This document shows, piece after piece, positions 23,291-62,527 of a stretch of DNA of 64,000 nucleotides. This DNA comes from Thermoanaerobaculia bacterium (GTDB taxonomy: Bacteria > Acidobacteriota > Thermoanaerobaculia > Multivoradales > SZUA-115). Made by a program: the position numbers and the translations under genes. Below the pieces are notes generated by a model, which was not told where the DNA came from, did not search any database, and was given only the letters and a program-made list of their open reading frames with translations. The stretch lies in NCBI GenBank assembly GCA_046331405.1, contig JAXLQX010000001.1, positions 576,471 through 640,470 on the forward strand, in the 5' to 3' direction. Numbering within the stretch: the first letter of the stretch is position 1; each line of letters opens with the position of its first letter.

Positions 23291-23375
<85 letters not shown>

Positions 23376-35575: not shown

Positions 35576-35960
35576 CAGTCATGCCAGGATGTTTTCTCCC
35601 CTAGAGTGCAGCGAGTCAATCAGTCGGGACAACGCAAGAAGCCGCTTCGGGCCGCGGCCTCGCTAGCGAATCGAGGAAATTTCCGTAGGTGTTCAGGTGT
35701 GGGCACAATTCTCTTCTAAACATTACTGTTACGGCTGGGCAAAGAGTCGAGTTCCAGCGCTGTGATCGTCTGCCGGCCGCGTGTCACGCCACCGGCTGAG
35801 GAGTGCATTCTTAGATGTAGAACGCGAGATCAGCTCGTCAAGACAAACCCGACTCTGGCTGGGTAGCCAGTTTGGAAGGGAAAAGGATGAACCGTCCTGG
35901 AACGCCCCCCCGCCAGAGTCGATTCGGCGCCTCGACCGATTCTGCCAGGGAGCTGCTTCC

Positions 35961-36680
35961 ATGGTATCGACCCTCCTCGCGCTGGCCCTGACCCTGCCGG
36001 CAACGGCTGCAGCCAACGACCTCACGGTGGACCAGATCCTCAGCCGGGCTGTCGAGGCCCGGGGTGGGGCAGCGCGCCTCAAGGAGCTGCGCTCGATCCG
36101 CACCCAGGGTGATTTTCTGGTTCAAGACGTCAAGCAGCCGTTCGTCCTCTACCGCCAGCGTCCCGACCATCTGCGCTCCGAGATCCAGACCCGCAAGGGC
36201 GCCGTCGTGCGGGTTTTCGCCGACGGCAAGGGCTGGGAGGTGAACCCCACCCAGGGCTCCACGGCGCCGCGGGTGCTGAGCGACGCCGAAGCGGCGGGTC
36301 TGCGCCGCCAAGCGGACTTCGATGGCCCTCTTCTCGATGCCAAAGCCAAGGGTCATCAGTGGCGGTTGGTGGGCCGCGAGAAGCTGGGCGACAAGGACGC
36401 CTATCACCTCGAGGTGAAGCTCGCGAGCGGCGACTCCGAGTCCTGGTGGGTGGATGCCGGGGACTTTCACGTGGTTAAGTCGGTTCAGAAGCAGACCGTG
36501 GCCGGCCAGCTCACCGACCTAGTCACTGAATACAGCGATTTTCGCGATGTCTCAGGAGTGAAGCTGCCGTTCCGTATCGACACCGAGCAAGTGGCACTCG
36601 GCCGCAAGACCACGCTCCTGGTGCAGTCGATCGCGGTCGATGCCGAGATGTCCGGGGATCTCTTCAGGATGCCCGGCTAA
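35961..36680 (+). CDS. Secreted LolA-like / outer-membrane-lipoprotein-sorting-like protein
   Basis: Start re-placed at ATG 35961, giving signal peptide MVSTLLALALTLPATAAA. Beta-rich, about 240 aa. Family assignment is tentative. Confidence 0.4.
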   Translation: MVSTLLALALTLPATAAANDLTVDQILSRAVEARGGAARLKELRSIRTQGDFLVQDVKQPFVLYRQRPDHLRSEIQTRKGAVVRVFADGKGWEVNPTQGSTAPRVLSDAEAAGLRRQADFDGPLLDAKAKGHQWRLVGREKLGDKDAYHLEVKLASGDSESWWVDAGDFHVVKSVQKQTVAGQLTDLVTEYSDFRDVSGVKLPFRIDTEQVALGRKTTLLVQSIAVDAEMSGDLFRMPG

Positions 36681-36711
36681 GCGTGGCCGTGCCCCATGTC
36701 GGAGCCATGCC

Positions 36712-39700: not shown

Positions 39701-42700
39701 GCCCGGCCGGCGAAGGCGCCTTCCAGTTCCGGTTCCTGACCGCCCGAGAAGGCGGTTGGCTGTGCCACTCCCACGGCCGGGTGCGAGGGGTCCTCGAGGG
39801 CAACTCCGGCGCCGACTTCCGGGCGTTCGAGGCTGCACGCGGGCGCTGCCGGCAGGAGGCGGATTCGGAGGCCCCTTATCGGCAGCTCGAGGCCCTCGGG
39901 CTCGAGTACGGGCCGTCCTTTCGCCGGCTGGCGGCCCTCCACCGGGGTGACGGCGAAGCGGTGGCTGCCCTGGAGCCTGCCGAGGGTGGCCTCGGAGGCT
40001 CCTACCGGCTCGACCCCACGCTGCTCGACGCCGGCTTCCAGCTGCTCGCGGCGGCGCTGGGAGAGGCGGAGACGGGTGGCAAGACGCTGCTGCCGGTACG
40101 CCTCGAGAAGCTGCGCTTCTTTCCGTCGGCGGGCCCACCCGCCTGGTGCTGGGCTCGGCTGGAGCCCATGCCGGCCGGCGAAGAGCTGCCGCGAGGCTCG
40201 GTCTCTCTGTTCGACTCGCAGGGCGCGCTGGTGGCCGAAGCGAAGGGGCTCGCCCTGGCGCGCCTCGCTTCGGCCGAGGAGCCGCGCAGCCTCTTCCATC
40301 AGATCCTCTGGCAGGAGGCGCCGCTCGAGGCTGCGGCAGCCGCCCCGCCGGCGTCGAGCTGGCTGCTGGTCGGTGGCCCCGCCGAGCTCGCCGGCAGCCT
40401 GCGGAGCGCTCTCGAGCACGCCGGGCAGCTCGTCGAGGCCACCGCCGGGCCGAGCTTGCCGCCGGGTGGGCCGTGGCAACACGTGATCTCCTTAGCGGCG
40501 CTCGAGGTCCCCGCGCTTGGCCAGAGCCCTGATCAACAGGCCCTCGAGTTCGCCTGGCGGGCTGCCCAGCTGGTGCAGGGGCTGGTATCGGCGCCCGGGC
40601 CCCGGCCGGGGCTGTGGCTGATCACCCGCGGCGCGGTGGCTCCGGCAGGAGAAGCGCCCTCGGCAGCCCCTCAGGCGGTGCTCTGGGGCCTCGGCCGGAC
40701 CCTGCGCAACGAGCATCCCGAGCTCGCCTGTCGCCTGGTGGATCTCGATCCTTCTTGGACGGGCGGCGAGCGGCTCGCTGCCGAGCTGCTCGCCGGCAGC
40801 GAGGAGGCGCAGGTCTGCCTTCGCCGCGACGGTCGCTTCGCGGCTCGGCTCTCGGCCGGCCTCGAGGGCGGAGCACGGGCCGCCGCCGGACCGCCGGCGC
40901 GCACCCTGAGCGCCCGGGAGCCGTTCCGCCTGGAAGCCCTCACGCCCGGCGTGCTCGACGGCCTCGCCTTGACCCGCTGCGCGCGGCGCCCTCCCGGGCC
41001 GGGGCAGGTCGAGGTGCTCGTCCGTGCGGCGGGCCTGAACTTCATGGACCTGATGCGGGCCATGGGCATCTATCCCGGCCAACCGGACGGAGCTCTCGCC
41101 CTGGGGGTGGAATGCGCCGGCACGGTGGTGGCGGTGGGCCCCGGGGCGGAACGTTTCCGCCCGGGGGACGAGGTGGTGGGCATCACCCCCTCGCACAACA
41201 CCTGTATCGCCTCCTACACCACCCTCGACGAGCGCTGCGTGGCACCGCGGCCGGCCGGGCTCGATCCGCTCGCGGCCGCCACCCTGCCGGTCGCCTACCT
41301 CACCGCCTATTACTCGCTCTGCCACCTCGCCCGGCTCGCCCCCGGCGAGCGGGTGCTGATCCACTCGGCCACCGGCGGCGTGGGCCTCGCGGCCTGTCAT
41401 CTCGCTCGCCAATTGGGCGCCGAGGTGCTGGCCACGGCCGGCAGCGAAGCCCGCAGGGCCTACCTGCGCGAGCTCGGCATCGAGCACGTCTTCGACTCTC
41501 GTTCTCTCGGCTTTGCGGCCGCCGCGCGGGCGGCCACCGCGGGCAAGGGCGTGGACGTGGTGCTCAACTCACTCGCCGGCGAGGCCATTCCGGAGGGGCT
41601 CGCGTGCCTGGCCACCGCCGGGCGCTTCGTCGAGCTCGGCAAGCGGGACATCTACCAGAGCGCCCAGCTGAGCCTGCTGCCGTTCAAGCGCAATCTGGCC
41701 TTCTTCGCGGTGGATATCGATCTGCTCTGCCGCGAGCAGCCGGCCTTCGTGGGCCGGATGCTGCAGGAAGCCATGGCACTGGTGGCGAGCGGGGCGGTGC
41801 CGCCCCTGCCCAGCCACGTCTATTCGATCGCCGAAGCCCACGAGGCCTTCCGGCTGATGGCCCAGGCGCGCCACCTGGGCAAAGTGGTGCTCCATTTCGA
41901 CCGCCCCGAGGTTTCCGTGCAAGAGCCGGCCGGCCGGGCCGCCACCCTCTCCGCCGAGCGCAGCTACCTGGTGACCGGCGGTCTCGGCGGTCTCGGCCTC
42001 CAGGTGGCCGGCTGGCTGGCCGACCACGGTGCCCGCAAGCTCGCCCTGCTCGGCCGCAGCGCACCCGGCGAAGAGGCTCGTGCCCTGGTGGCCTCGCTCG
42101 CCGAGCGCGGCGTCGAGGTGCTCACCCTGGCGGCGGACGTGGCCGACGCCGGAGCGGTCGATCACGCCGTGAGCCGTATCGAGGCCGAGCTCGCTCCGCT
42201 GGCGGGAGTGGTTCACGCCGCCGGTCTGCTGGCGGATCGCACCCTGGTCTCGCTCAGCGAGGAGGATTTCGCCCGCGTCTTCGCGCCCAAGGTGCGCGGC
42301 GCCTGGCTGCTCGGGGAGCGCACCCGCGGCTGTCCGCTGGACTTCTTCGTGCTGTTCTCCTCGGCGGCGGCCGCCCTGGGCTCACCGGGCCAGGCCAACT
42401 ACAGCGCCGCGAACGCCTATCTCGATGCCCTGGCGGCAGCGAGGCAGGGAGAAGGCCTGCCCGGTCTCGCGATCGCCTGGGGTCCGTGGTCGGAAGTCGG
42501 CTTGGCGGCACGGCCGGATCGCGGTGGCCGGCTCGCCCGCCGTGGCTTCGGCAGCCTCTCGCCGGCCGAAGGCCTCGAGGCGTTCGGAGAGCTTCTGGCG
42601 AGCCGAGAGAGCCAGGTGGTGGTGACGCCCTTCGAGCTCGGCCCCTGGCAGCAGTTCTATCCGCAGGCCGCGAGCGACCCCTTCTTCAGCACTCTGGGCC

Positions 42701-43157
42701 GAGCCGAGGAACCGGCGACGGGAGCGAGCGAAGGGCTCAGCGCCGCGAGCCTCGCGCGCTTGCCGGCCGCCGAGCGAGAGGCCCGACTGCGGGAGTACCT
42801 GCGCGAGCTGGTGGCCCGGGTGCTCGGCCTGCCTGCGGCACGCCTCGAGGACGACCGGCCGGTGAACCGCCTGGGTATGGACTCGCTGATGGCCGTGGAG
42901 ACCCGCAATCGCGTGGAGATGGACCTCGGGGTGAGCGTTCCCGTGGTGACCCTGCTCCAGGGGGCCACGCTGCGGGAGCTCACGGAGCGGATCCAGGCGG
43001 AGCTGGGCGCGAGCCCTGCCGGCTCCGCCGCTCCGCCGCCGGCCGGCCCCGGCGAACCCGGCCACGAGGTGGTTGCCGAGATCGACCTCGAGGCGCTCTC
43101 CGAGGGCCAGGTCGACTCGCTCTTACGAGACCTCCTGGAGAGCCAGGGCAGCGCTCC

Positions 43158-43161
<4 letters not shown>
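36712..43161 (+). CDS. Type I polyketide synthase, single fully reducing module KS-AT-DH-ER-KR-ACP
   Basis: KS: DTACSSSLVALHQA, EAHGTGT, NIGHTEGAAG. AT: GQSLGEVAAAHVAG with the YASH specificity motif (methylmalonyl-type). DH: HPLLGWRLESALHAGTRFWQTE. ER: LIHSATGGVGLAA. KR: YLVTGGLGGLG. ACP: LGMDSLMAV. Start at MTRDRRSPQSDDVAIVGLSCRFP. ATGA overlap with the next gene. Confidence 0.9.
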
Positions 43162-48866
<5,705 letters not shown>

Positions 48867-48872
48867 GCCGCC

Positions 48873-50516
48873 ATGCGCCGAGGCCTGGACTGCGTCGTGA
48901 TCGGTTACAACGATCCACCTTTCGAACGCTATGCCGAACTCCTGCGGCAATACGGCGTGGATTCGCCGGCCTATCGCGACCTCAAGCTCTCCTCGGTGAC
49001 ACTCGACGGCAAGATGATGGGCTACGTCGACCTGCTCAACCGGAGTCTCGGCGAGGCCTGGGGCCGAGACCCACGGCTGCGCTCGGGGGACATCCCCTCC
49101 CTCGCGGCCGCCTATCTGGTGAGCTATCTGCGCCGGCACGGCGCGAGCGCCTGCTATATCAACCTTTTCCAGGAGGAGAAGAACCGGCTGGCAGAGCTGC
49201 TGGCGGAGGGGCCCCTCTGTGTGGCGATCACCACCACGCTCTATGTGCTGAATTTTCCGGTGAACGAGATGGTGGAGTTCATTCGCGCCATGGACCCCAC
49301 GGGCAAAGTGAAGATCGTGGTGGGCGGGCCGCTGGTGGCCAACCATGTCCGCAACTACCAGGGCGGCGAAGGCCTCGACGCGGCCCTCCAGGATCTCGGC
49401 GCCGACTACTACGTCTGCGAGGCCCAGGGCGAGGCGACGCTCGCGCAGCTGGTGCGCGCCCTGCGCGACGGCGGCGACCTCGCTGCGGTGCCGAACCTCT
49501 ACTACTTCGAGGCCGGCCGGCTGGTCTCGACCGCCCAGGCGCCGGAAAACAACTCCTTGGACGAGCATCACGTGGACTGGCGGCTGCTGGCCGACCACGG
49601 GCTGGGTGCCACGGTTCAGACCCGCACCGCCCGCAGCTGCGCCTTCAAGTGCTCGTTCTGCAATTATCCGGCGCGGGCCGGCAAGCTCACTCTTGCCAGC
49701 GTCGAGACCGTGCAGGCCGAGCTCGACGCCTTGCGCGAGGCGGGCGTGCGCAACGTGGTGTTCATCGACGACACCTTCAACGTGCCGTTGCCGCGCTTCA
49801 AGGCCCTCTGCCAGATGATGATCCGGCAGAATTATCCCTTCCGTTGGTTCTCCTACTTCCGCTGCAGCAACTCCGACGCCGAGGCGGTGGAGCTGATGGC
49901 GCGAAGCGGCTGCGGGGGTGTGTTCCTGGGCATCGAAAGCGGCTCGCCGACGATCCTCACCAACATGGACAAGGCGGCCACGATCGAAAAGTACCGCGAA
50001 GGCATCCGGATGCTGCGCGAGCACGGCATTCTGACCTTCGGTTCTTTCATCACCGGTTTTCCAGGCGAGACCGACGCCACCGTGGCCGAGACGGTCGACT
50101 TTCTCGAAACCACCGGGCTGGACTACTACCGCACGCAGCTGTGGTATTGCGAGCACGGCACGCCGATCGAGCGCCGCCGCGAGCTCCATGGCATCGAAGG
50201 GGAAGGTTTCGTCTGGTCCCACGCCACCATGGACAGCCTGGAAGCGATGGATCACATCGAGCGGATCTTCCTGTCGGTGACCGGTCCGATCTGGCTGCCG
50301 CAATGGTCGTACGATTTCTGGATCCTGCCATACCTGCTGGGAAAAGGTTTCCAACGCGATCAGCTGGACGGCTTCCATCGCCAGGCCCAGAAACTGATGG
50401 CGTTGGAGGTCGCCACTCTCTCCGAGCGAGACCGCCAGGGGCGCCGCGAGGCCTTGATGGCGAGCACGGTGGCGGCTGCCCGCACCTGGCAGGCAAGGAA
50501 CGAGGTGGCTCTATGA
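48873..50516 (+). CDS. Cobalamin-binding (class B) radical SAM enzyme
   Basis: N-terminal B12-binding Rossmann domain (VVIGYNDPPFERY...KIVVGGPL) and canonical TRTARSCAFKCSFCNYP (Cx3Cx2C). Starts 6 nt after the NRPS1 stop. ATGA overlap with the NRPS2 start. Confidence 0.8.
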   Translation: MRRGLDCVVIGYNDPPFERYAELLRQYGVDSPAYRDLKLSSVTLDGKMMGYVDLLNRSLGEAWGRDPRLRSGDIPSLAAAYLVSYLRRHGASACYINLFQEEKNRLAELLAEGPLCVAITTTLYVLNFPVNEMVEFIRAMDPTGKVKIVVGGPLVANHVRNYQGGEGLDAALQDLGADYYVCEAQGEATLAQLVRALRDGGDLAAVPNLYYFEAGRLVSTAQAPENNSLDEHHVDWRLLADHGLGATVQTRTARSCAFKCSFCNYPARAGKLTLASVETVQAELDALREAGVRNVVFIDDTFNVPLPRFKALCQMMIRQNYPFRWFSYFRCSNSDAEAVELMARSGCGGVFLGIESGSPTILTNMDKAATIEKYREGIRMLREHGILTFGSFITGFPGETDATVAETVDFLETTGLDYYRTQLWYCEHGTPIERRRELHGIEGEGFVWSHATMDSLEAMDHIERIFLSVTGPIWLPQWSYDFWILPYLLGKGFQRDQLDGFHRQAQKLMALEVATLSERDRQGRREALMASTVAAARTWQARNEVAL

Positions 50517-53500
50517 GTGGAACGCCCACCACCGGCTATCGTCTCTCGCCTCTCCAGCGCCGGCTCTGGCGCGTCCTCGAGCCAGGGGAGCAGGCCCTCA
50601 CCCGGCTGGAGCTGGAGGTTCGTGGCCGGTTGGAGCCGCAGACGCTGCTTGCCGCGGCGAGGCAGGTGGCGGCTCGCCACGAGGCCCTGCGCACGAGCTA
50701 CTCCCTGCCGGCGGGGTTCCGCGTGCCCTTCCAGGTGGTGGCGCCGGAGCCAGCCGTGGCGATGAACGAGCACGCGAGCTCCGTGCAGACGGGGCTCGGC
50801 TTGCGCTTCGAGGAGCTCGGGCCCGCGCACTTCCGGCTCGAGCTTTCCGCCCCGGCCCTCGGCTGCGATGCCGAGAGCCTGGCCACGGTGGCGGGCGAGC
50901 TGCTGCATCTGGCGGCCGGCGGCGGCGCCGAGGACCTCGCCCCGGAGCCCCTCCAGTACGTGGACTTCTCGGAGTGGCAGCACGAGCAGCTGGAGCAGGG
51001 GGACCCGGCGCTGGCCGTCGCCCGGAGCTTCTGGCAGGAAGTAGAGCTCGCGCCGCTCCAGGCCCTCAGCCTGCCGTTCGAGCTTGCCGCCCGCAGCGCC
51101 GGGGGAGGCAGGGCGAGCGAGCGGCTGCAACGCCGCCTCGAAGGCGAAGATCTGGCCGCGGCCCGAGAGCTCGAGGCCCGCCTGGGCTCGAGGCCGGGGG
51201 CGCTGGCCCTCGCCGTCTGGCTGATCTGGCTCGAGCAGCGCTGCCGGCTGGCGGCGCCGACCACGTCGATCCGGCTGGAGGGCCGCAACCTGCCCGAGCT
51301 GGAGGGGGCAGTAGGCCTCTTCGCCCGCTGGCTGCCCCTGGTCCACCGCGCCCCGGAGAGCCTGCGCTTCGCCGAGCTGGTGAGCCGGGTCTCGAAGGCC
51401 CTGGGCGAGGCCGGGGGGCATCAGGGCGGCTTCGCCTGGCCGGAGACCGAGGGCGAGGAACCAGCTACGCCGCGGGTGGGCTTCGCCCGCCTCGGCCTGC
51501 CCGCCTTCTCCCTGCCGGGCCTCGAGGCCCGCGCCACAGGGCTCGAGAGCGCGCCAGAGGGCCAAGCGCTGGTGCTCGAGGTGCTGGAGAGCGACGAGGC
51601 CTGGCAGCTCGGCTTCCGGTTCGACCCGTCACGGCTGCTCCAAGAGGACGTGGCGATGGCCGCCGGCGAGTGGCTGGAGCTGCTCGGCCAGGGGCTCCGC
51701 CGGCCGGACACCCCGCTCGGCCGCCTTTCGCTGCTCGGCAGCGAGGCTCGCTCGAGCCTGCTCCAGAGCTGGCGCGGGGCAGGCCGCTCGGCCGAGCCCC
51801 GGGCGTCTCTGCCCGAGCAGATCTTCGCCGCGGCCCGTGAAGTGCCGGATCGCGTGGCGGTGGTCTTCGAGAGCGAGTTCTTGAGCTACGGTGCGCTCGC
51901 CCGTGGAGCCGAGGCTCTGGCCGCCCGGCTCGATGGGCAGGGCCCGGAGTCGGTGGTGGGGCTCTGCCTGGAGCGCTCGACCGAGCTCATGGCCGGCCTC
52001 CTGGGAATCTGGCGAGCCGGGGCTGCCTACTGCCCGATCGACCCGGCCCAGCCGCGCGAGCGCCTCCGCCGCCTGATGGAGGACCTCCGGGCCCCGGCGG
52101 TGGTGACTTCGGCCGAGCTCGCCCCCCGACTCGAAGCGGCCGGCGGGCGGCCGGTGGTGATCGGCGAGGTGAGCCCGAGCCCGGCGCCGCTTCGCAAGCT
52201 CGCTCCAGAGCCGAGCTCCCTCGCCTACGTGATCTTCACTTCGGGTTCCACGGGCCGGCCCAAGGGGGTGGCGGTGGAGCATCGCCAGCTCGCCCACTAC
52301 GTGGCCGCGGCCCGGGCCGCCCTCGACCTGCCCGCCGGGGCAAGCTACGCCTCGGTGTCCACCCTGGCCGCCGACCTCGGCAACACGGCGATCTTCCCGG
52401 CGCTGGCGAGCGGCGGCACCCTCCACCTGCTCTCGCTCGAGCGGGCGGCCGATGCCGAGGCGTTCACCGGCTACTTCCGGGAGCGGCCGGTCGAGGGCCT
52501 GAAGATCGTGCCCAGCCATCTCGAGGCCGTGCTCGAGGCGGACGCCACGGCGCCGCTGCCGTGGCGCCGCCTGGTGCTGGGCGGCGAAGCCTGCCGCCCC
52601 GAGTGGGCGGCGGCCCTGGCCGGGCGCATGGCCGGGGGGCGGGTGTTCAACCACTACGGCCCCACCGAGACCACCGTGGGCGCGCTCACCGACCCGGTCG
52701 GGCCTTCCCCGGGAGACTCCCGCCTGCGCGCCTGGCCCCTCGGCCGGCCGCTCGAGGGGATGCGTGCCTACCTGCTCGACCGGCGCGGCGAGCCCTTGCC
52801 GCTGTGGGCCCCCGGCGAACTCTTCCTGGCGGGAGACGGGGTGGCTCGCGGCTACCTGGGCCGGCCCGCCCAGACCGCCGAGCGCTTCCTGCCGGACCCG
52901 CTGAGCCCATCGCCCGGCGCTCGCCTCTACCGCACCGGCGACCTCGCCCGCCGCCTGCCGGACGGCCGCATCGAGTTTCTCGGCCGCAGCGACCACCAGG
53001 TGAAGTATCACGGCTTCCGCATCGAGCTGGCCGAGATCCGCGCCGCGCTGAACCAGCACCGGGCGGTGCGCAACAGCGCCATCCGTCTGCTCAAGGACGA
53101 CGCCGGACGCGACGTGCTGGTGGCCTACTACGTGGCGCGCGAGGAGCTGGACCCGGCGGAGCTGCGCACCTTCCTGGGGGAGCACATCCAGGAGGAGACT
53201 CTCCCCGGCTATTTCGTGCACCTGCGCCGGCTGCCCCTCACCCTCAACGGCAAGGTGAACCTCGAGGCCCTGCCGGAGCTCGCCGAGGTGCGCCAGAAAC
53301 TGGCCCGCCACTTCGTGGCTCCCACCACCGAGACCGAGAAAGCCCTGGCGGCGATCTGGGGCGAGCTCCTGGGCCTCAGCCGGGTGGGGGTGGAGGAGAG
53401 CTTCTTCGAGCTGGGCGGGCATTCGCTGCTGGCCACCCGAATGGCCTCCCGGATCCGCCGGGGCTTCGGCGTGGTGCTGCCGCTGCGGGCCCTCTTCGAG

Positions 53501-53647
53501 GCGCCCACCATCGCTCTGCTCGCCCGTCGGGTGGAAGCGGAGCGCGGCACCGCCGCCCCGGCCGAGGTGGTCCTGGTGGCCGAGAGCCTGGACATCGAAG
53601 CCCAGCTCGCCGAGCTCGCCGGGGGCAAACCGGAGGAGGTCGTTTGA
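50513..53647 (+). CDS. NRPS subunit 2: degenerate C-like domain (no HHxxxDG) - A - PCP
   Basis: N-terminus YRLSPLQRRLW...HEALRTSYS is C-like, but the catalytic motif position reads SAPALGCDAES (no His). A domain LAYVIFTSGSTGRPKGV, NHYGPTETTV, YRTGDLA, KYHGFRIELAEIR. PCP FFELGGHSLLATRM. TTGA overlap with the next gene. Confidence 0.85.
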   Translation: MSGTPTTGYRLSPLQRRLWRVLEPGEQALTRLELEVRGRLEPQTLLAAARQVAARHEALRTSYSLPAGFRVPFQVVAPEPAVAMNEHASSVQTGLGLRFEELGPAHFRLELSAPALGCDAESLATVAGELLHLAAGGGAEDLAPEPLQYVDFSEWQHEQLEQGDPALAVARSFWQEVELAPLQALSLPFELAARSAGGGRASERLQRRLEGEDLAAARELEARLGSRPGALALAVWLIWLEQRCRLAAPTTSIRLEGRNLPELEGAVGLFARWLPLVHRAPESLRFAELVSRVSKALGEAGGHQGGFAWPETEGEEPATPRVGFARLGLPAFSLPGLEARATGLESAPEGQALVLEVLESDEAWQLGFRFDPSRLLQEDVAMAAGEWLELLGQGLRRPDTPLGRLSLLGSEARSSLLQSWRGAGRSAEPRASLPEQIFAAAREVPDRVAVVFESEFLSYGALARGAEALAARLDGQGPESVVGLCLERSTELMAGLLGIWRAGAAYCPIDPAQPRERLRRLMEDLRAPAVVTSAELAPRLEAAGGRPVVIGEVSPSPAPLRKLAPEPSSLAYVIFTSGSTGRPKGVAVEHRQLAHYVAAARAALDLPAGASYASVSTLAADLGNTAIFPALASGGTLHLLSLERAADAEAFTGYFRERPVEGLKIVPSHLEAVLEADATAPLPWRRLVLGGEACRPEWAAALAGRMAGGRVFNHYGPTETTVGALTDPVGPSPGDSRLRAWPLGRPLEGMRAYLLDRRGEPLPLWAPGELFLAGDGVARGYLGRPAQTAERFLPDPLSPSPGARLYRTGDLARRLPDGRIEFLGRSDHQVKYHGFRIELAEIRAALNQHRAVRNSAIRLLKDDAGRDVLVAYYVAREELDPAELRTFLGEHIQEETLPGYFVHLRRLPLTLNGKVNLEALPELAEVRQKLARHFVAPTTETEKALAAIWGELLGLSRVGVEESFFELGGHSLLATRMASRIRRGFGVVLPLRALFEAPTIALLARRVEAERGTAAPAEVVLVAESLDIEAQLAELAGGKPEEVV

Positions 53648-56600
53648 GCCTGGAGGGCGCAAGCTCCCTCGAGCGACGGCTCGCCGCGTTGACGCCGCCA
53701 CAGCGCGCGGCTCTCGCCGAGCGCAACCCGCTCTCCTTCGCCCAGGAGCGGATGTGGTTTCTCGACCAGCTCTTCGGTGGCAGCGCCTTCTACCACGGCG
53801 GCGCCGCCCTCTGCCTTCACGGCGAGCTCGAGGTGGCTGCGCTCGCCGCCGCCCTCTCCGAGCTCGCCCGCCGGCACCACGTTCTCCGTTCCGTGTTCCC
53901 GGCGCTCGACGGCGTGCCGGCCCAGCTGGTGCTGCCGGCGGCGGCAGTGGCCCTGCCGGTGGTGGACCTCGCAGCCCTCGCCCCGCTGGATCGTGAGCGG
54001 GCGGCCGCGGCGCTGGCCGCCCACGAGGTGGCCCGCCCCTGCCGGCTGGATCAAGGCCCCGTCTGGCGCCGCCTGCTGCTGCGATTGGCGACACGAGAGC
54101 ACCGGCTGATCGCCACTCTCCACCACATCGCGGCCGACCGCTGGTCCCTGGCCATCCTGGCCCGAGAGCTGGGCGAGCTCTACGCCGCCCGGCTCGCCGG
54201 CCGGCCGGCGGAGCTGCCTTCTCTCCCCGTGCAGTACGGCGACTTCGCCCGCTGGCAGCGTCGCCTGCCTGCCGAGGCGTTCGCGGGGGACCTCGCCTAC
54301 TGGCGAAGCCAGCTCGCCGCCCTGCCGCCGCCCCTCGAGCTGCCGGTGGACCACCCCCGGCCGGCCCGTCCCGGCCTGCGCGGCCGCCGCCACCACCACC
54401 ACCTGGCGGCTGGCCTCGAAGGACGCCTGCAGAGCGTGGCCCGGCGCGAGGGAGCCACGCCATTCATGCTGGTGCTCGCGGCCCTGGCCGCACTGCTGGC
54501 GCGCTGGACGGGCAGCCAGGACGTGCTGCTGGGAAGCCCCCTGGGGGCTCGGGAGCGAGAGGAATTCGAGCCGCTGATCGGCCTCTTCCTCAACACCCTG
54601 CCGCTGCGGCTGCGGCCCGGGCGGGGCCTCAGCTTCCGCCAGCTCCTGGCCGAGGCCGGGCAGGTGGCCCTCGAGGCCCAGGACCACGCTGCCCTTCCCT
54701 TCGAGAAGATCGTCGAGGCCGTCCAGCCGGAGCGCCAGCTCGATCGCAATCCGCTCTTCCAGGTTCTCTTCGCTTACCAGAACGTGCCGCGAGAGCGGTT
54801 GGCTCTGGGCAGCCTCGAGGTGGAGCTGGCGGAAGTGGAGAGGCAGAGCGCCCTCTTCGATCTCTCGCTCTCGTTCGAGGAGGAGGCGGAGGGGCTGAGC
54901 CTCGGGGTGGATTACAGCCGGGACCTCTTCGACGCCACCACCGTGGCGCGGCTGGCCCGGCACCTGGAGCGGCTGCTCACGGCCGCCCTCGAGAACCCGG
55001 AGGAGCGGCTCGAAGCGCTGCCCTGGTTGGCCGCAGCCGAGGAGCACCAGCTGCTCCGGGAGTGGAGCGACACCGCGGTTGCCGGCGATCCGCCCTCCCC
55101 GTTCGAGCTCTTCAGCCTCCAGGTTGCGGCACGGCCGGAGGCGAGCGCCGTTGCCTGCGACGGCGAGGTGCTCAGCTACGGCGAGCTCCACCGCCGGGTC
55201 CGCCGCCTGGCGGCCGCCCTCGAGGGGCAGGGTGTGGGCCCGGGCTCGCGGCTGGGGCTCTATCTCGAGCGCTCGCCCGAGCAGCTCCAGGCCCTGCTGG
55301 CCGCCCTCTGCCAGCGCGCCGCCTACGTACCCCTCGACCCGGCCTTCCCGGCGGAGCGGCTGCGTTTCATGGCCGAGGATGCCGGCCTCGCTGCGATCCT
55401 GGTGGCCGAGCGCGCGGCGGCCCCGCCCGAGTTCGCCGGCAGGTTGCTGGCTCTGGGCGAGCTCGAAGCCCCGGCCGAGGGCCCGGGCGCGGCGCCGGGC
55501 GGCGACTGGCCGGCCTACCTGATCTACACCTCCGGCTCCACCGGGCGGCCGAAAGGCGTGGTGGTACCGGCCTCGGCGGTGAGCAACTTCCTGCTCTCGA
55601 TGGCCGAACGGCCGGGCCTCTCTGCCTGCGAGCGACTGGTGGCGATCACCACGCTCTCCTTCGACATCGCCGTCCTGGAGCTGCTGCTGCCGCTGGTGGT
55701 GGGCGCCCAGGTGGTGCTCGCCCGGCGGGCGACGGCGAGCGACCCTCTGCGCTTGGCCGGGCTCCTGGCCGAGCAGGCGGCCAACGCCCTCCAGGCCACG
55801 CCGGCGACCTGGCGGGCCTTGCTCGAGAGCGGCTGGCAGCCGCCCGCGGGGCTGGCCCTGCTCTGCGGCGGCGAGTCCCTGCCGCTCGAGCTGGCGGAGC
55901 GGCTTTGCCAGGGGGAGAGCTGGCTGTGGAACCTCTACGGCCCCACCGAGACCACCGTGTGGTCCACGCTCGAGCGCTGGCAGCGGGGCGAGCCGAGCGT
56001 TGCCGCGGGCCGGCCGATCGCCAACACCGGGGCCTTTGTGCTGGACCGCGGCGGCCGGCCGCTGCCCGTGGGCGCCCCGGGCGAGCTCGCGCTCGGCGGC
56101 CGCGGCGTGAGCTGGGGCTACAGCGGCCGGCCGACGGCCACCGCCGAGCGTTTCCGGCCGGACCCCTTCGCCGATCGGCCGGGGCAGCGCCTCTACCACA
56201 CCGGGGATCTGGTGCGCCGGGGCCCGGATGGGCGCCTCGAATGGCTCGGCCGGCTGGACCATCAGGTCAAGCTGCGGGGTTTCCGCATCGAATTGGGCGA
56301 GGTGGAGGCGGCGCTCGCGAGCCACCCAGGAGTGGCCCAGGCCGTGGCGCTGGTGATCGGGCCGGAGCCGGCCGCGCTGGTGGGGGTGGTTCGGCCTCGC
56401 CCCGAACAAAGCCCGGCCGGCGCGGCTCTCTTGGCGCATCTCGGCCAACGCCTGCCGGGCTACATGGTGCCGTCGCAGATCGTCCTGGTAGACCCGCTGC
56501 CGCTCACTCCCAACGGCAAAGTGGACCGCCGGGCCCTGGGCGAGCAGGTGGCGACCCTGCGGCGGGGCGCGGCGCCGGAGGAAGGGCCCTCCGGCTCGCA

Positions 56601-59600
56601 GCTCGCCCAGCTGCTGGCGGCGATCTGGGCGGAAGTCCTGGGCCGGGAAGAAGTGGGCGAGCACGAGGACTTCTTCGCCCTCGGCGGACATTCGCTGTTG
56701 GCGGTTCGGCTGGTCGCCCGGCTGCGGGCCACCGTGGCTCCCGGGGCCGAGCTGCGCACCCTGTTCGACCACCCCACTCCCGCGAGTTTCGCCCTGGCGC
56801 TGCCGGCGAGCTCTGGCGAAGTACAACCTCTGGCCCCGATTCCCCGCCTCGAGCGCGGCGGCTTGCTGCCTCTCTCTTCGGCCCAGCAGCGCCTGTGGTT
56901 CCAGGACCAGCTCGAGGGGGAGCTCTCGGCGCTCGCCTTGCCAGCGCCGTTGCGGCTCTCGGGGCCGCTCGACCCGCGCCGAATGTCGACGGCGCTGGGG
57001 GCCCTTGTGGCCCGCCATGAGCTGCTGCGCACCCGCTTCCCGGTCGAGGCCGGGCGAGTGTGGGCGGAGATCACCCCCGCCGGGCCCCTGGCCTTGCCGG
57101 AGGTGGACCTCTCGGGCCTGCCTGCGGCTCGGCGGCCTGCCGAGGGCTCCCGTCTCCTCGCCGTCGACCTGCGAAGGCGCTTCCCGCTCGCAAGCTCGCC
57201 CCCGCTGCGCTGCGCGCTGCTGCGCCTGTCGGCGGCCGAGCACTGGCTGCAGCTCACGCTTCATCACATCGCCGGTGATCTCGGCTCCCTCGCGGTGCTG
57301 CTCCGGGAGCTCTCGGTGCTTTACCGGCAAGGGCAGGAGGCGCTTGCCCCGCTCGAGCTTCAACATGTCGATTTCGCCGCCTGGCAGCGGGGCGTCCTGG
57401 CCGGGCCCGGGCGCGAGGCGGAGCTGGCCTGGTGGCGGAGCACCCTGGAAGACCTGCCGCCGAGCTTCGAGCTGCCGGCCGACCGGCCCCGCCTGCCCGG
57501 CCAGGAGCCGCGAGGCGCCCGGGCGTCCTTCGCGCTCGCTCCCGGGCTGGTGCAGGCGCTGAGGCGCCAGGGCCGAGCCCTGGCGCTCACTCCGTTCATG
57601 CAGTTGGCCACGGGCCTCGCGCTGCTGCTCGGCCGCCTCGGCCGCAGCCGGGATCTGGCCCTGGCGACGCCGGTCGCCGGCCGGGACCGGCCCGAGCTCG
57701 CGGAGATGATCGGCCCGTTGCTCAACACGGTGGCGATCCGGCTGAGCCTCGCAGCCAACCCCACGGTGGCCGAGGCGCTGGCCATCGTGCGCGCTCAGGT
57801 GCTGGGGGCCCTGGCCCACCAGGAGCTGCCCTTCGACGAAGTCGTGACTTCCCTCGGCCTTGCCCGAGGCGGCGGCTCGCCGCCCTGGCTGGCCGCCCTG
57901 CTCGCGGTGCAGAACCTCGCCCTGCCGGCCCTCGACTTCGGCGCGCTCGAGGCCGAGCCGCTCGAGGTGGAAAAGCAAGCCGTGCAGTTCGAGTTGGTGG
58001 CGTTCTTCGCCGAGCGCCAGGGCGGCCTGGCCGGCGGCTTCAACTACCGCAGCGATCTCTTCGACCGCACCACCATCGAGCGCTGGCGAGGTTGGCTCGA
58101 GCGCCTGCTCGAGGGGGTCGCGACCCGGCCGGAGGCGCGGGCCTGGGACCTGCCCTGGTGGAGCCCGGCCGAGCACCAGCAGCTGCTCTGCGAATGGAGC
58201 GAGAGCAGGCGACTGCCCGAGGCGGGCCCCGAGGAGGGGCCCTGGTGCCTCTTCGCCGCCGCCTGCCGGCGGGCCCCGGAACGAGTAGGGGTGGTTTTCG
58301 AGGGCGAACACTGGAGCTATGGGGCGCTCGCCGCCCGGGCCGCCGCCGGCGCCGCCGAGCTCGAGGCCTTCGGAGTGGGGCCGGAGCAGCTGGTGGCGAT
58401 CTGCCTGGAACGCTCGGTGGCGCTCGTGGTCGCCGTGCTCTCGGTGCTCGGGGCCGGGGCGGCCTACGTGCCGCTCGATCCCGCCTGGCCCCGGGAGCGG
58501 CTGGCGAGCCTGCTCACGGAGCTGGGCCATCCCTGGGTGCTGAGCGGTCCCCTCGAGCGGGAGCTCCTGCCGGCCAACGCCCGGGCGCTCGAGCCGGCCC
58601 GAGTGCCAGCTGAGCCTGTGCCGGCCCCGCTGCCCGACGCCCGGCAGCTGGCCTACTTGATCTACACCTCCGGCTCCACCGGCCGGCCCAAGGGCGTGAT
58701 GATCTCCCGCGGCAGCGCTGCCCACCTGGCCCGCTCCCAGGTGGTGGCCTTCGGCCTGGGCGAGGGCGAGCGGGTGCTGCAGTTCTCGGCGATCACCTTC
58801 GACGCTTCGGTTTCGGAGCTGCTCACGGCGTGGGCGGTGGCGGGAACTCTGGTCCTCGGTCGCCGCGAGCAGCTGGCGGATTCGGGGGAGCTCGCCGGGC
58901 TCGCCAGCCGCGAGCGGATCGACCTCGTGACGCTGCCGCCTTCGCTTCTGGCCCGGCTCGCTGCCGGCTCGTTGCCGGCGCAGACCACCCTGGTGGTGGC
59001 CGGCGAGGCCACTTCGGCCGAGTTGGTGGACCGCTGGGCCCCGGGGCGTCGAATGCTCAACGCCTACGGCCCGACCGAGTGCACCGTGGGCGCCACCGTG
59101 GGGCTCTGCGAGGTCGGCGCTGGCGCGCCGCCGGCCCTGGGCCGCCCCACCCGGGGTTACCGGCTGCACGTGGTGGACCCCGGGGGGCAGCTCACGCCCC
59201 CGGGAGCCCCGGGGGAGCTCTGGATCGGCGGCGAGGGAGTGGCCCGGGGCTATTGGCGCCGGCCCGGGGAAACGGCGGCGCGCTTCGTGCCCGACCCCTG
59301 GAGCGGCGAGCCGGGCGCTCGCCTCTACCGCACCGGTGACCTCGGGCGCCAGCTTGCCGATGGCCGCTTGCGCTATCTCGGGCGCATCGATGCCCAGCTC
59401 AAGGTGCACGGTGTGCGCATCGAGCCGGCCGAGATCGAAGCCGCGTTCCTGGCCCATGGGGCCGTGCGCGAGGCGGCCGTGCAGCTCGCCTGGCGCGGCG
59501 CCGAGCGGGTGCTCGTGGCCTATCTGGGGGTGGGGGCGAGTGGGGTGAGCGAAAGCGCGCTGCGCGCCCACCTGGCGGAGCGCCTGCCGCGCACTCTGAT

Positions 59601-62427
59601 GCCCGCGGCGCTGGTGCTGCTCGAGCGGCTGCCCCTCTCCTCTCACGGCAAGGTCGATCGGCGGGCTCTCGAAGAGCTGCCGGTCGAGGTCGCGGCTTCG
59701 AGCTCTGCGGGCCCGCCCCGCGACGCCCTGGAGAGACGCCTGGCCGAGTTGTGGCAGGACATTCTCGGCCGCGGGGCCGGCACGGTGGGCGTGGGCGACG
59801 ATTTCTTCGCCCTGGGCGGCAGCTCGATCGATGCGGCGATCCTGGTCAACCGCCTGCAGGAGGAGCTCGGCGAGCACGTCTACGTGGTGGCGCTGTTCGA
59901 CGCCCCCACCCTCGGAGATCTCGGCGTCTGGCTCAAGCGCCACTACCCGGCCGCCGTGGAGCGTCGCTTCGGGGTGAGCGGCGGGCAGTCGGCCCCCGAG
60001 GGCGCGCAGCGGGATGGCCGGCCGCTCGGCGCGGCGGATCTCGCCGCGCTGGCCGGCCGGGTGGAGCCCCCGGCGGCGGCCCGGAGAGCTCGCCAGCGCC
60101 GGCCGGCGATCTTCGTGCTCTCGCCGCCGCGTTCGGGCTCCACGCTGCTGCGCGTGCTGCTCGGCGGGCATTCGCAGCTGTTCGCGCCGCCCGAGCTGGA
60201 CCTGTTCTCCTTCGCCACCCTGGGCGAGCGCCGCCGGGCCTTCTCCGGGCGTTTCGCCTTCTGGCGCGAGGGCCTGATCCGCGCCGTCATGGAGCTTGCC
60301 GGAAGCGACGCCCCGGCCGCCGAGCGGCTGGTCGAGGGCTTCGAAGAGCGCGACGCCGAGGTTTCCGAGGTGCTCGGCTGGTTGCTCGACGCCTGCGCTC
60401 CTCGCCTGTTGGTGGACAAGACGCCGGCCTACGCCCTCCACCCCGCGATCCTCGAGCGCCTGGAAGACGAGGTGCCGGGCGCCCACTACATCCACCTGCT
60501 CCGCCACCCGCAGGCGGTGATCGCCTCCTTCGTCGAAGCCCATCTCGATCAGCTCTTCTTCCGCCCCGAGCACCCCTACAGCGGGCCCGAGCTGGCGGAG
60601 CTGGTGTGGCAGCTCAGCCAGCGCAACATCCTGGAATTCCAGCGCCGCGTGGCCCCGGAGCGCTGGCATCCGGTGCGCTTCGAAGAGCTGGTGGCGGCGC
60701 CGGCCGAGGTGATGGCGAGGCTCTGCGCGGGCCTCGGCCTCAAGCTCGAGCCGGCCATGCTCGAGCCCTACGGCGATGGGCGCGGCCGGATGACCGACGG
60801 CATCCATCCGCTGTCCAAGATGCTGGGCGACGTGAAGTTCCACCAGCACTCGGCGATCGACCCGGCGGCGGCCCACCGCTGGCAGCAACAGCAAGGCCTC
60901 CGGCCCCTCGCCCCCGGGACCGTGGCCCTGGCCGAGCGGCTCGGCTACCCGGCCCCCGAAGCGCCGCTGTCCTTCGCCCAGCAGCGCTTCTGGCTGGCCC
61001 ACCGGCTGGACGCCTCCGGCTACGCCTACAACATCCCGGCCGCCGTGGAGCTCGAGGGCGAGCTCGATGCCCGGGCCCTCGCCGACGCCCTCGGCGACCT
61101 CGTTGCTCGGCATCAGGTGCTGCGCAGCTTCTTCCCGGTGGTCGAGGGCAGGCCCGTGGCCCGCTTCCGGCTGCCGGCCGGAGAGCCCCTGCCAAGGCTG
61201 GATCTCGAGGGCCTGGGCGAGGGCGCCGCCGCCGAGGCCGCCCGGCTGGGCGCGCGGGAGGCGAAGCGGCCGTTCGCCCTCGGGACCGGGCCGGTGGTGC
61301 GGATGCGCTTGCTCCGCCTCGGGCCGGCCCGTCACCGCCTGCTCTTCACTGCCCACCACATCGCGAGCGACGCCTGGTCCTCGGCGATCGTGCTTGCCGA
61401 GCTCGACACCCTCTACTCGGCGCGGCTCGCCGGCCGCCGGGCCGAGCTGCCCGAGCTCGCCGTCCAGTACGCGGACTTCGCCCGCCACCAGCGCGAGGAG
61501 CCGCCGGCCGGGCGGCAAGCGGCACTCGCCTACTGGCAGCGTGAGCTGGCACCGCCCTGGCCGCGCCTCGCCCTACCGGTGGACCGGCCCGAGGCTGCGG
61601 CCCTCGCCACCGCCGGCGCTCGCCTCACCATTGCCGTGCCGCCGCCGGTCGCCACGCGGCTGGTTGCCCTCGCCCGCGAGGAGAGCGCCACGCCGTTCGC
61701 CGCCCTGCTCGCAGCCTTCGGCCTGGTACTCGGGCACCTCGGCGGGCAGACGGATCTGGTGGTGGGCACCAACTTCGCCGAGCGAGGCCGGCCGGAGCTC
61801 GAGGGGCTGATCGGCTGCTTCGTCAACCAGCTCGCGCTGCGCCTCTCGCTCGCCGGCGAGCCCAGCCTGCGCGAGCTGCTGCGCCGTGCCCGGCGCACGC
61901 TGGTGGAGGCCCAGCGCCACGGCGAGGTTCCCCTGGAGCAGGTGCTGGAGCAGCTCGGCCTGGGCCCCCGCGCCGGCCAGGGGCAAGGCGAGGAGATCTT
62001 CGAGGCCAAGTTCGAGCTGCTCAACGTGCCGCGCGAGCGGCCGCGGCTGGGCCCGCTCGAGGTGCATCCGCTGGTCGAAGACCGCGGTGTGGTGCGCTAC
62101 CTCCTCCACCTGCTGCTCGAGGTGGGCGACGACGGCGGATTCCACGGCCTCTTCCAATACGACGGCGGGCGCCTCGAGGCCGCCACGGCGCGCGAGTGGA
62201 GCTGCCTTTTCGTCGATGCCTGCCGGCTGCTCGCCGAGCGGCCGGAGCTCGCTTTCGCTGCCGCGAAGGCCGAGCTCGCCTCCGCGGCCGAGCTGCGGCA
62301 GCAGGAGTCGGGGCGATTGCAGCGCCAGGCCAACGCCCGGCGCCTCGGCCAGAGCCGGCGCCCTGCCGCCGTCGCCAACCTCAGCACCCCCCAGGAGCCT
62401 TTCGACGATGAGCGACCCAACGCCTGA
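53644..62427 (+). CDS. NRPS subunit 3: C-A-PCP-C-A-PCP-sulfotransferase-C
   Basis: C HHIAADRWS. A1 AYLIYTSGSTGRPKGVVV, YHTGDL. PCP FFALGGHSLLAVRL. C LHHIAGDLGS. A2 AYLIYTSGSTGRPKGVMI, NAYGPTECTV, YRTGDLG. PCP FFALGGSSIDAAIL. Sulfotransferase PAPS motifs IFVLSPPRSGSTLL (5'-PSB) and LLRHPQAVIAS (3'-PB RxxxxxxS). Terminal C HHIASDAWS. TTG start overlapping the NRPS2 stop. Confidence 0.85.
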   Translation: MSLEGASSLERRLAALTPPQRAALAERNPLSFAQERMWFLDQLFGGSAFYHGGAALCLHGELEVAALAAALSELARRHHVLRSVFPALDGVPAQLVLPAAAVALPVVDLAALAPLDRERAAAALAAHEVARPCRLDQGPVWRRLLLRLATREHRLIATLHHIAADRWSLAILARELGELYAARLAGRPAELPSLPVQYGDFARWQRRLPAEAFAGDLAYWRSQLAALPPPLELPVDHPRPARPGLRGRRHHHHLAAGLEGRLQSVARREGATPFMLVLAALAALLARWTGSQDVLLGSPLGAREREEFEPLIGLFLNTLPLRLRPGRGLSFRQLLAEAGQVALEAQDHAALPFEKIVEAVQPERQLDRNPLFQVLFAYQNVPRERLALGSLEVELAEVERQSALFDLSLSFEEEAEGLSLGVDYSRDLFDATTVARLARHLERLLTAALENPEERLEALPWLAAAEEHQLLREWSDTAVAGDPPSPFELFSLQVAARPEASAVACDGEVLSYGELHRRVRRLAAALEGQGVGPGSRLGLYLERSPEQLQALLAALCQRAAYVPLDPAFPAERLRFMAEDAGLAAILVAERAAAPPEFAGRLLALGELEAPAEGPGAAPGGDWPAYLIYTSGSTGRPKGVVVPASAVSNFLLSMAERPGLSACERLVAITTLSFDIAVLELLLPLVVGAQVVLARRATASDPLRLAGLLAEQAANALQATPATWRALLESGWQPPAGLALLCGGESLPLELAERLCQGESWLWNLYGPTETTVWSTLERWQRGEPSVAAGRPIANTGAFVLDRGGRPLPVGAPGELALGGRGVSWGYSGRPTATAERFRPDPFADRPGQRLYHTGDLVRRGPDGRLEWLGRLDHQVKLRGFRIELGEVEAALASHPGVAQAVALVIGPEPAALVGVVRPRPEQSPAGAALLAHLGQRLPGYMVPSQIVLVDPLPLTPNGKVDRRALGEQVATLRRGAAPEEGPSGSQLAQLLAAIWAEVLGREEVGEHEDFFALGGHSLLAVRLVARLRATVAPGAELRTLFDHPTPASFALALPASSGEVQPLAPIPRLERGGLLPLSSAQQRLWFQDQLEGELSALALPAPLRLSGPLDPRRMSTALGALVARHELLRTRFPVEAGRVWAEITPAGPLALPEVDLSGLPAARRPAEGSRLLAVDLRRRFPLASSPPLRCALLRLSAAEHWLQLTLHHIAGDLGSLAVLLRELSVLYRQGQEALAPLELQHVDFAAWQRGVLAGPGREAELAWWRSTLEDLPPSFELPADRPRLPGQEPRGARASFALAPGLVQALRRQGRALALTPFMQLATGLALLLGRLGRSRDLALATPVAGRDRPELAEMIGPLLNTVAIRLSLAANPTVAEALAIVRAQVLGALAHQELPFDEVVTSLGLARGGGSPPWLAALLAVQNLALPALDFGALEAEPLEVEKQAVQFELVAFFAERQGGLAGGFNYRSDLFDRTTIERWRGWLERLLEGVATRPEARAWDLPWWSPAEHQQLLCEWSESRRLPEAGPEEGPWCLFAAACRRAPERVGVVFEGEHWSYGALAARAAAGAAELEAFGVGPEQLVAICLERSVALVVAVLSVLGAGAAYVPLDPAWPRERLASLLTELGHPWVLSGPLERELLPANARALEPARVPAEPVPAPLPDARQLAYLIYTSGSTGRPKGVMISRGSAAHLARSQVVAFGLGEGERVLQFSAITFDASVSELLTAWAVAGTLVLGRREQLADSGELAGLASRERIDLVTLPPSLLARLAAGSLPAQTTLVVAGEATSAELVDRWAPGRRMLNAYGPTECTVGATVGLCEVGAGAPPALGRPTRGYRLHVVDPGGQLTPPGAPGELWIGGEGVARGYWRRPGETAARFVPDPWSGEPGARLYRTGDLGRQLADGRLRYLGRIDAQLKVHGVRIEPAEIEAAFLAHGAVREAAVQLAWRGAERVLVAYLGVGASGVSESALRAHLAERLPRTLMPAALVLLERLPLSSHGKVDRRALEELPVEVAASSSAGPPRDALERRLAELWQDILGRGAGTVGVGDDFFALGGSSIDAAILVNRLQEELGEHVYVVALFDAPTLGDLGVWLKRHYPAAVERRFGVSGGQSAPEGAQRDGRPLGAADLAALAGRVEPPAAARRARQRRPAIFVLSPPRSGSTLLRVLLGGHSQLFAPPELDLFSFATLGERRRAFSGRFAFWREGLIRAVMELAGSDAPAAERLVEGFEERDAEVSEVLGWLLDACAPRLLVDKTPAYALHPAILERLEDEVPGAHYIHLLRHPQAVIASFVEAHLDQLFFRPEHPYSGPELAELVWQLSQRNILEFQRRVAPERWHPVRFEELVAAPAEVMARLCAGLGLKLEPAMLEPYGDGRGRMTDGIHPLSKMLGDVKFHQHSAIDPAAAHRWQQQQGLRPLAPGTVALAERLGYPAPEAPLSFAQQRFWLAHRLDASGYAYNIPAAVELEGELDARALADALGDLVARHQVLRSFFPVVEGRPVARFRLPAGEPLPRLDLEGLGEGAAAEAARLGAREAKRPFALGTGPVVRMRLLRLGPARHRLLFTAHHIASDAWSSAIVLAELDTLYSARLAGRRAELPELAVQYADFARHQREEPPAGRQAALAYWQRELAPPWPRLALPVDRPEAAALATAGARLTIAVPPPVATRLVALAREESATPFAALLAAFGLVLGHLGGQTDLVVGTNFAERGRPELEGLIGCFVNQLALRLSLAGEPSLRELLRRARRTLVEAQRHGEVPLEQVLEQLGLGPRAGQGQGEEIFEAKFELLNVPRERPRLGPLEVHPLVEDRGVVRYLLHLLLEVGDDGGFHGLFQYDGGRLEAATAREWSCLFVDACRLLAERPELAFAAAKAELASAAELRQQESGRLQRQANARRLGQSRRPAAVANLSTPQEPFDDERPNA

Positions 62428-62527
62428 GCCCCGCGTGCCCGGAGTGGACCTGGTGACCTGGATCGCCGGGCCCCGGCGGATCCCCGTCGAGATGGGCCAG
62501 GCCGCCAGCGGGGAGCCCCGGCCGTGA
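62408..62527 (+). CDS. Possible 38-aa bridging ORF between NRPS3 and NRPS4 (hypothetical)
   Basis: ATG at 62408 overlaps the NRPS3 stop in the +1 frame. Encodes MSDPTPEPRVPGVDLVTWIAGPRRIPVEMGQAASGEPRP. Its TGA overlaps the GTG start of the next NRPS gene (CCGTGAGCC). Confidence 0.2.
   Translation: MSDPTPEPRVPGVDLVTWIAGPRRIPVEMGQAASGEPRP

Follow-up and report, generated by a model that had tools for sequence, protein, structure and literature searches.

A PhpK-family cobalamin-type radical SAM gene at a split aspartate module of an acidobacterial assembly line: a proposed on-line C-methylase

Class B (cobalamin-type) radical S-adenosylmethionine (SAM) methylases transfer a methyl group via methylcobalamin and use two molecules of SAM per turnover. 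PhpK and BcpD are enzymes of this kind from the pathway to phosphinothricin tripeptide (bialaphos), which is a product of nonribosomal peptide synthetases (NRPSs). We describe here a gene of the same named family in a 64,000-nt stretch of DNA from Thermoanaerobaculia bacterium (GenBank assembly GCA_046331405.1, contig JAXLQX010000001.1, positions 576,471 to 640,470 of the forward strand), hereafter the window. The gene, at 48873-50516 on the plus strand (as are all genes of its operon), encodes a 547-aa protein that shares with PhpK/BcpD the NCBIfam family TIGR04479, a length of about 550 aa and the same layout of B12-binding and radical SAM domains, the likeness being one by profile. Both pathways use NRPSs, and an acidic amino-acid side chain is the presumed substrate in both. 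In contrast to PhpK/BcpD, however, the gene has no phosphonate genes that we could find around it, and it is accompanied by an adenylation (A) domain for Asp, a split NRPS module, a TauD-family dioxygenase domain and a non-catalytic condensation-like (C-like) domain. This difference in context suggests that the target atom is most likely carbon and not phosphorus.

Several other described systems resemble the window in part. AptU, from the allopeptimicin polyketide synthase (PKS)-NRPS cluster of Actinoallomurus, is a 546-aa protein with 42% identity to PhpK of S. viridochromogenes, and has been proposed, although only proposed, to C-methylate a dicarboxylate carbon in the formation of a 2-hydroxy-4-methylglutarate unit (PMC9169493). 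Like the window enzyme it is a PhpK homologue in a PKS-NRPS cluster devoid of phosphonate chemistry, but it belongs to a four-gene precursor cassette (aptQSTU) and not to an NRPS module junction. A radical SAM methylase, MypH, is also present in the NRPS cluster for mycoplanecin (PMC10817943), and CysS methylates a substrate bound to a peptidyl carrier protein in the NRPS pathway to cystobactamid (PMC8992657). Protein Data Bank (PDB) structures of CysS and TokK hold pantetheinylated ligands. CysS and the carbapenem enzymes TokK/ThnK are class B enzymes with the same overall fold as the window protein, and act on carrier- or pantetheine-linked substrates. However, CysS is only distantly related to it (E=2.9e-6), CysS and TokK show 16-18% identity to it in structural alignment, the substrates (an aryl methoxy group and a carbapenam side chain) are different, and the genes stand alone as tailoring genes and are not inserted at a junction. 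As for the junction itself, Reitz et al. (in PNAS, 2019) reportedly described siderophore NRPSs with an integrated aspartyl beta-hydroxylase and an interface domain in front of the Asp A domain. The window shares with that cassette a C-terminal TauD fusion, an Asp A domain and a C-like domain lacking the catalytic histidines, and differs from it by the cobalamin radical SAM gene inserted at the junction, as well as by the occurrence of the same radical SAM enzyme with dioxygenase-free Asn modules. Profiles for beta-hydroxylase and interface domains are now part of antiSMASH 8 (PMC12230676).

The open reading frame at 48873-50516 opens with ATG exactly 6 nt (gccgcc) after the TGA (48864-48866) of the upstream synthetase gene, and a GGAG sequence is found 11 nt 5' of the start. 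Its own TGA (50514-50516) shares bases with the ATG (50513-50515) of the next plus-strand gene in an ATGA overlap. An identical protein occurs on three metagenome contigs, where independent gene calls arrived at the same boundaries. We conclude that the gene is real, chance being far too improbable an explanation, and that it is translationally coupled into the assembly-line operon and translated together with the synthetases. By sequence and predicted fold its product is a class B radical SAM enzyme. The CxxxCxxC [4Fe-4S] motif reads CAFKCSFC (49638-49661, aa 256-263), with Cys256, Cys260 and Cys263 invariant across 24 homologues, and the Pfam Radical_SAM domain (PF04055) covers aa 253-411 (E=3.3e-24). 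The N-terminal Rossmann region (49086-49379, aa 72-169) matches the B12-binding domain PF02310 with E=2.5e-7 and 31.0 bits, marginally under the gathering score of 32.1. An AlphaFold2 model built on the homologue alignment (pLDDT 85.8, pTM 0.86) supports this domain at the fold level, and cobalamin binding is predicted: the top PDB matches are all Rossmann-plus-radical-SAM enzymes (TsrM, MgmA, AprD4, CysS, OxsB, and TokK), the majority of them solved with cobalamin bound, and the alignments with TsrM, CysS, TokK and OxsB span 420-590 columns. All solved structures are only distant by sequence, the best match being the diol dehydratase AprD4 (E=1.3e-16). The original prediction, made from the letters of the DNA, had named the reading frame, the 6-nt gap, the ATGA overlap, the CAFKCSFC core, the class B identity and co-translation with the assembly line, and each of these is borne out.

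The protein is already known to the databases under a family name. The NCBI record of this exact protein, from a Thermoanaerobaculia (Acidobacteriota) metagenome-assembled genome (MAG), is called PhpK family radical SAM P-methyltransferase, and both NCBI and JGI give this name to the protein and its relatives. The underlying NCBIfam model, TIGR04479 (PhpK/BcpD), is matched end to end (aa 6-508 on profile positions 2-503 of 504) with 625.5 bits, where 600 is required, and all other B12 radical SAM models of NCBIfam give about 100 bits or less. PhpK/BcpD, and not Fom3, GenK, PoyC or CysS as originally named for comparison, is therefore the closest named family. With this naming the default reading is a genuine phosphinate P-methyltransferase, in a cluster that makes a phosphinothricin-like C-P-C peptide, and that reading needed testing. 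Apart from the names and the full-length match above cutoff, it can draw on the fact that phosphinothricin tripeptide is itself made by NRPSs. However, the score is barely over the cutoff, and the model is of the 'subfamily' type, so that a match to it does not guarantee function. Known phosphonate and phosphinate pathways all begin with phosphoenolpyruvate (PEP) mutase. Neither a homologue of the PEP mutase/isocitrate-lyase superfamily (tblastn with E. coli PrpB, E<=1) nor the PEP mutase signature EDKx5NS was found in 1.53 Mb of sequence made up of the 64-kb window and 91 related loci, the PrpB query being a member of the superfamily with the homologous motif EDQx5CG. Pfam annotation of the window likewise gave no phosphonate gene, PEP mutase included. 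Further to that, the adjacent A domain carries a canonical Asp code, and the genes of distant family members (only 40-43% identity) likewise have NRPS genes on both sides and no phosphonate genes around them. We rejected a true P-methylase on the context seen in the window and these loci and consider it extremely improbable, and we hold with high confidence that the enzyme serves in assembly-line tailoring instead.

The position of the gene within the operon is specific. The upstream gene (43158-48866) encodes a 1902-aa NRPS of the architecture C-A-T-C-TauD, where C stands for condensation and T for carrier domains (as assigned from Pfam, motifs and A-domain codes). Its second C domain (46476-47789, aa 1107-1544) is catalytically intact, with the motif HHLVADGGS, and would serve the split Asp module. 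It is followed at the C-terminus by a TauD/TfdA-family Fe(II)/2-oxoglutarate dioxygenase domain (47934-48815, aa 1593-1886; PF02668, E=6.4e-45, with relatives in the PDB). The downstream gene (50513-53647; gene calls, Pfam and motifs) encodes a 1044-aa protein of the type C-like-A-T. Its interface-like, non-catalytic C-like domain (50513-51712) shows PALGCDAES in place of HHxxxDGxS and gives a weak and partial Pfam Condensation match (aa 119-305, 85.6 bits). The A domain (51827-52858) is predicted to activate Asp from its canonical specificity code DLTKVGHVGK, the extraction of codes having been checked on the GrsA control, which gave DAWTIAAICK. The carrier domain (53342-53533, PF00550) is the proposed site at which Asp would be presented to TauD and the radical SAM enzyme. 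With the intact C domain and TauD on one side and the dead C-like domain and Asp A-T on the other, the radical SAM gene lies exactly at the module split. It had been described as wedged between NRPS genes, which is correct as far as the flanking synthetases are concerned, but the upstream protein is not a plain NRPS, as it ends in C-TauD and comes after a fully reducing PKS module, and the placement in front of C-like and Asp A domains is not arbitrary.

This junction is conserved among related loci. A scan of species-representative genomes returned 80 loci with 56-65% identity, and the counts given below use 82 non-redundant loci, in which the scan loci were combined with loci from earlier searches. 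The host genomes, dozens of soil bacteria, are nearly all Acidobacteriota MAGs (Pyrinomonadaceae, Blastocatellia, Thermoanaerobaculia, Bryobacteraceae, and Ca. Angelobacter), and three hosts are myxobacteria in culture: Archangium minus Cbm 6 (locus L079; NZ_CP043494.1, about 1.98-2.00 Mb), Vitiosangium sp. GDMCC 1.1324 (L081) and Myxococcus xanthus AM003. Same-strand NRPS/PKS domains were present in 76/82 loci, and in 39 a synthetase lies directly on both sides. The first A domain downstream of the radical SAM gene has an Asp (DLTK[VI]GH[VI]GK) or Asn-like (DLTK[VI]GE[VI]GK) code in 37 of 45 cases (82%), compared to 21/127 among the other A domains of the same loci (odds ratio 23, Fisher p=3e-15, a value that overstates independence since the loci are phylogenetically related, and is only indicative). 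The catalytic motif xHxxxDxxS is kept in none of the 37 C-like domains that follow the radical SAM gene, versus 23/29 upstream C domains. The C-like region between the radical SAM and A domains is full-size in Asp loci, and in Asn loci consists of the C-terminal half. TauD is fused directly upstream in 14/19 Asp-type loci; a dioxygenase is absent from 8/11 Asn-type loci, and a PhyH enzyme together with a stand-alone C domain occurs in three loci of that type. It follows that the radical SAM enzyme has no need of a preceding hydroxylation. Conversely, TauD-plus-interface junctions without a radical SAM gene exist in L004 (3461-5376) and L035 (3267-4869), so that TauD and the radical SAM enzyme combine independently. 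The A domains that follow these two junctions have unusual codes (DARSLSQMTK and DARGVSQMTK). Two PhpK-like radical SAM copies were seen in L006 (18905-21677), L020 (~19778), L079 (~19338, minus strand) and L090 (572-2266 and 10001-11695).

The family at large is also associated with assembly lines. Metagenomic members gave 3066 matches, a full HMMER scan with E<=1e-30 resulted in 482 clusters at the 50% identity level, and most members sit inside predicted NRPS/PKS clusters. Radical modification had been called uncommon for NRPS systems, and this is true of the characterised ones but does not extend to the thousands of metagenomic members. Among the members at 40-43% identity, the radical SAM gene of the gammaproteobacterial locus L089 precedes a Pro-like A domain, and in L090 one of the two copies precedes an Asn-like and the other a 2,4-diaminobutyrate (Dab) module. 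Natural fusions were found as well: radical SAM to a carrier domain (PP-binding; P0121, 59% identical to the window protein), to C-T-thioesterase (P0152), to a partial C domain (P0135), and, for the second copy in L006, to a condensation domain. These fusions argue for a family acting on carrier-bound intermediates.

Several observations, in addition to the relatedness of the loci, weigh against an enzyme dedicated to C-methylation of carrier-bound Asp or Asn. No A domain was found within 3.5 kb of the radical SAM gene in 26 of the 65 loci (~40%) with enough downstream sequence, and a few loci are located beside Val, Pro-like, Dab or PKS modules, so that the tie of the family to Asp/Asn is not a strict one. 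The minority contexts include positions between ketosynthase (KS) modules (L026, L031, and L057) and loci with no synthetase nearby (L016 and L072). The neighbour-joining tree is star-like, with Asp-context and Asn-context enzymes interspersed, and gives no support for a link between enzyme sequence and Asp versus Asn context. At the level of chemistry, cobalamin-type radical SAM enzymes also carry out non-methylating reactions, and the characterised members of TIGR04479, whose cutoff the window protein passes, are to our knowledge P-methylases only. The C-methylase function proposed for this clade is deduced from sequence and context. The protein could be a C-methylase with a different target or timing, acting on the upstream Cys-derived residue, on the polyketide chain, on a free amino acid before loading or on the released peptide. 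The relatives located between KS modules or beside Val, Pro-like and Dab modules are compatible with this, as are the radical SAM methylases of uncertain timing in NRPS clusters (MypH, PMC10817943; AptU, PMC9169493) and the activity of PhpK shown in vitro (PMC8950095). However, the specificity of the nearest upstream A domain varies widely (Asp/Asn in only 11/41, against 82% downstream), the gene is inserted at the split between C and A with a dedicated non-catalytic C-like domain, and the fusions to T and C-T-thioesterase point to carrier-bound chemistry. We consider a different target or timing possible, but unlikely.

We propose instead, with about even confidence, that the enzyme is an on-line methylase which C-methylates carrier-bound Asp, probably at C-beta, beside a TauD beta-hydroxylase. 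Direct results are the class of the enzyme, its coupling within the operon, a junction that recurs across loci, the link to Asp/Asn codes and the failure to find phosphonate genes; from these we infer that the substrate is carrier-bound, that a methyl group is transferred and which carbon is attacked. The original prediction had already placed the action of the enzyme on a peptidyl or aminoacyl intermediate, and the operon context supports this. The radical SAM enzyme would dock where the Asp module is split, with the dead C-like 'interface' domain as its probable docking partner. The 5'-deoxyadenosyl radical would then take a hydrogen from the aspartyl thioester on the carrier, most likely from C-beta, and methylcobalamin would give the methyl group (+14 Da). 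C-beta is the most plausible position, as it is the only side-chain carbon and lies beside the carboxylate, similar to the P-H of the PhpK substrate, which belongs to an acidic group. As TauD would act as a hydroxylase on this residue too, the proposed product is beta-methyl- or beta-hydroxy-beta-methyl-Asp. A (beta-hydroxy)aspartyl thioester might alternatively undergo non-methylating cobalamin radical SAM chemistry, such as rearrangement, dehydration or oxidation. AprD4 (by sequence) and the ring-contraction enzyme OxsB (by fold) are among the relatives of the protein, and pairing with a hydroxylase, as in the window, would yield a 1,2-functionalised substrate. However, PhpK, which represents the nearest characterised family, and most class B enzymes are methylases, and the Asn-type loci, most of which have no dioxygenase, show the enzyme without such a pairing. 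We therefore regard non-methylating chemistry as improbable.

The operon as a whole is a predicted hybrid PKS-NRPS. It includes a fully reducing type I PKS module (36640-43161), identified by Pfam as KS-acyltransferase-dehydratase-enoylreductase-ketoreductase-acyl carrier protein (ACP), the stop codon of which overlaps the start of the C-A-T-C-TauD gene (ATGA at 43158-43161). The A domain of the latter has the code DLYNMSLIWK (Cys). From this Cys-like A domain the first C domain was considered as a heterocyclisation domain, and this was ruled out by its normal motif, HHIAADLWS, which like that of the second C domain keeps HHxxxD. Downstream of the Asp module follows a 2927-aa NRPS (53644-62427; Pfam and codes) with the architecture C-A-T-C-A-T-sulfotransferase-C, its A domains having Gly (DILQLGLVWK) and Tyr-like (DASTVAAVGK) codes. 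The sulfotransferase domain (60103-60750; PF13469, E=9e-29), located between T and C after the Tyr-like A domain, may carry out on-line sulfation, which is unusual for an NRPS. The last NRPS gene (62428-64000, with an approximate start; Pfam and tblastn) runs past the window end and again opens with an interface-like C domain, as 62533-63741 aligns in tblastn with the dead C-like domain encoded at 50513-51712. This is a second split junction, in which no tailoring gene is inserted. Immediately before the PKS-NRPS genes, on the minus strand, are a gene for a pyridoxal-phosphate enzyme of the SbnA family (2,3-diaminopropionate biosynthesis; 34517-35578, 406.6 bits, cutoff 350) and, adjoining it, an ornithine-carbamoyltransferase-like gene (33468-34766) scoring below its equivalog cutoff. 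The two may supply a non-proteinogenic building block.

The GC content of the radical SAM gene (0.65) and the TauD domain (0.66), together 47934-50516, is lower than that of the flanking synthetase sequence (0.72-0.75). At the third codon position, however, the radical SAM gene has a value of 0.86, and TauD, the radical SAM gene and the neighbours all fall within 0.86-0.89, the gap being confined to codon positions 1 and 2. The dip thus reflects amino-acid composition and not foreign origin, and horizontal acquisition, which the lower GC content of the gene had suggested, was rejected, with the TauD part behaving likewise. An Rfam scan gave no riboswitch, its sole match being a tRNA gene.

Other parts of the window hold further genes of related classes. 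A second B12-type radical SAM gene (27617-29821, minus strand; 734 aa) matches TIGR03975, 'RiPP maturation radical SAM C-methyltransferase', with 517.9 bits (cutoff 281.85), and has a MacB/FtsX permease and genes of glycolysis as neighbours. The third protein of the radical SAM type (21630-23249, plus strand; 539 aa) has a Radical_SAM_N2 domain and is similar to the B12-binding family TIGR03960, though under its cutoff (214 versus 462 bits). The tRNA gene (23294-23375, minus strand; Rfam RF00005, 52 bits) is flanked by the gene for this third protein and by one for a Uma2-family endonuclease. At 2053-6509 on the minus strand, a fatty-acyl-AMP-ligase-like gene (AMP-binding plus DIP2-like), a fusion of ACP and class I/II aminotransferase (AONS-like) and a major facilitator superfamily (MFS) transporter form a cassette that suggests an amino-lipid pathway.

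The protein has a family name in the databases, its enzyme class is established, and NRPS pathways are already known to involve radical methylation. We found no published account, in the full-text literature on PhpK, NRPS and methyl-Asp/Asn, of a cassette in which a C domain (with or without TauD), a PhpK-like radical SAM enzyme and a dead C-like-A(Asp/Asn)-T protein follow one another; the only precedents that came up there were AptU, CysS and MypH. The conserved cassette appears to be undescribed, and it implies that the family name is misleading. If our proposal is true, thousands of database entries named 'P-methyltransferase' are functionally mis-annotated. Acidic amino acids with a beta branch, which known pathways make through glutamate mutase or 2-oxoacid methylation, would then gain a new enzymatic route; we know of no described precedent for a radical route to beta-methyl- or beta-hydroxy-beta-methyl-Asp residues. 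Interface-type condensation domains would also have a second class of tailoring enzyme that they recruit, which is of use in the engineering of on-line modifications. Acidobacteriota have many orphan clusters and almost no known products, and structure prediction for their NRPSs should then add +14 Da on Asp/Asn at such junctions. The presence of the cassette in three cultured myxobacteria makes the hypothesis directly testable. More tentatively, and a little short of even confidence, we suggest that the 'PhpK family' may mostly not consist of P-methylases, but be a large family of assembly-line-docked radical C-methylases, recruited in Acidobacteriota and some myxobacteria by the dead C-like domain to carrier-bound Asp/Asn, with the phosphinothricin P-methylases as a specialised offshoot.

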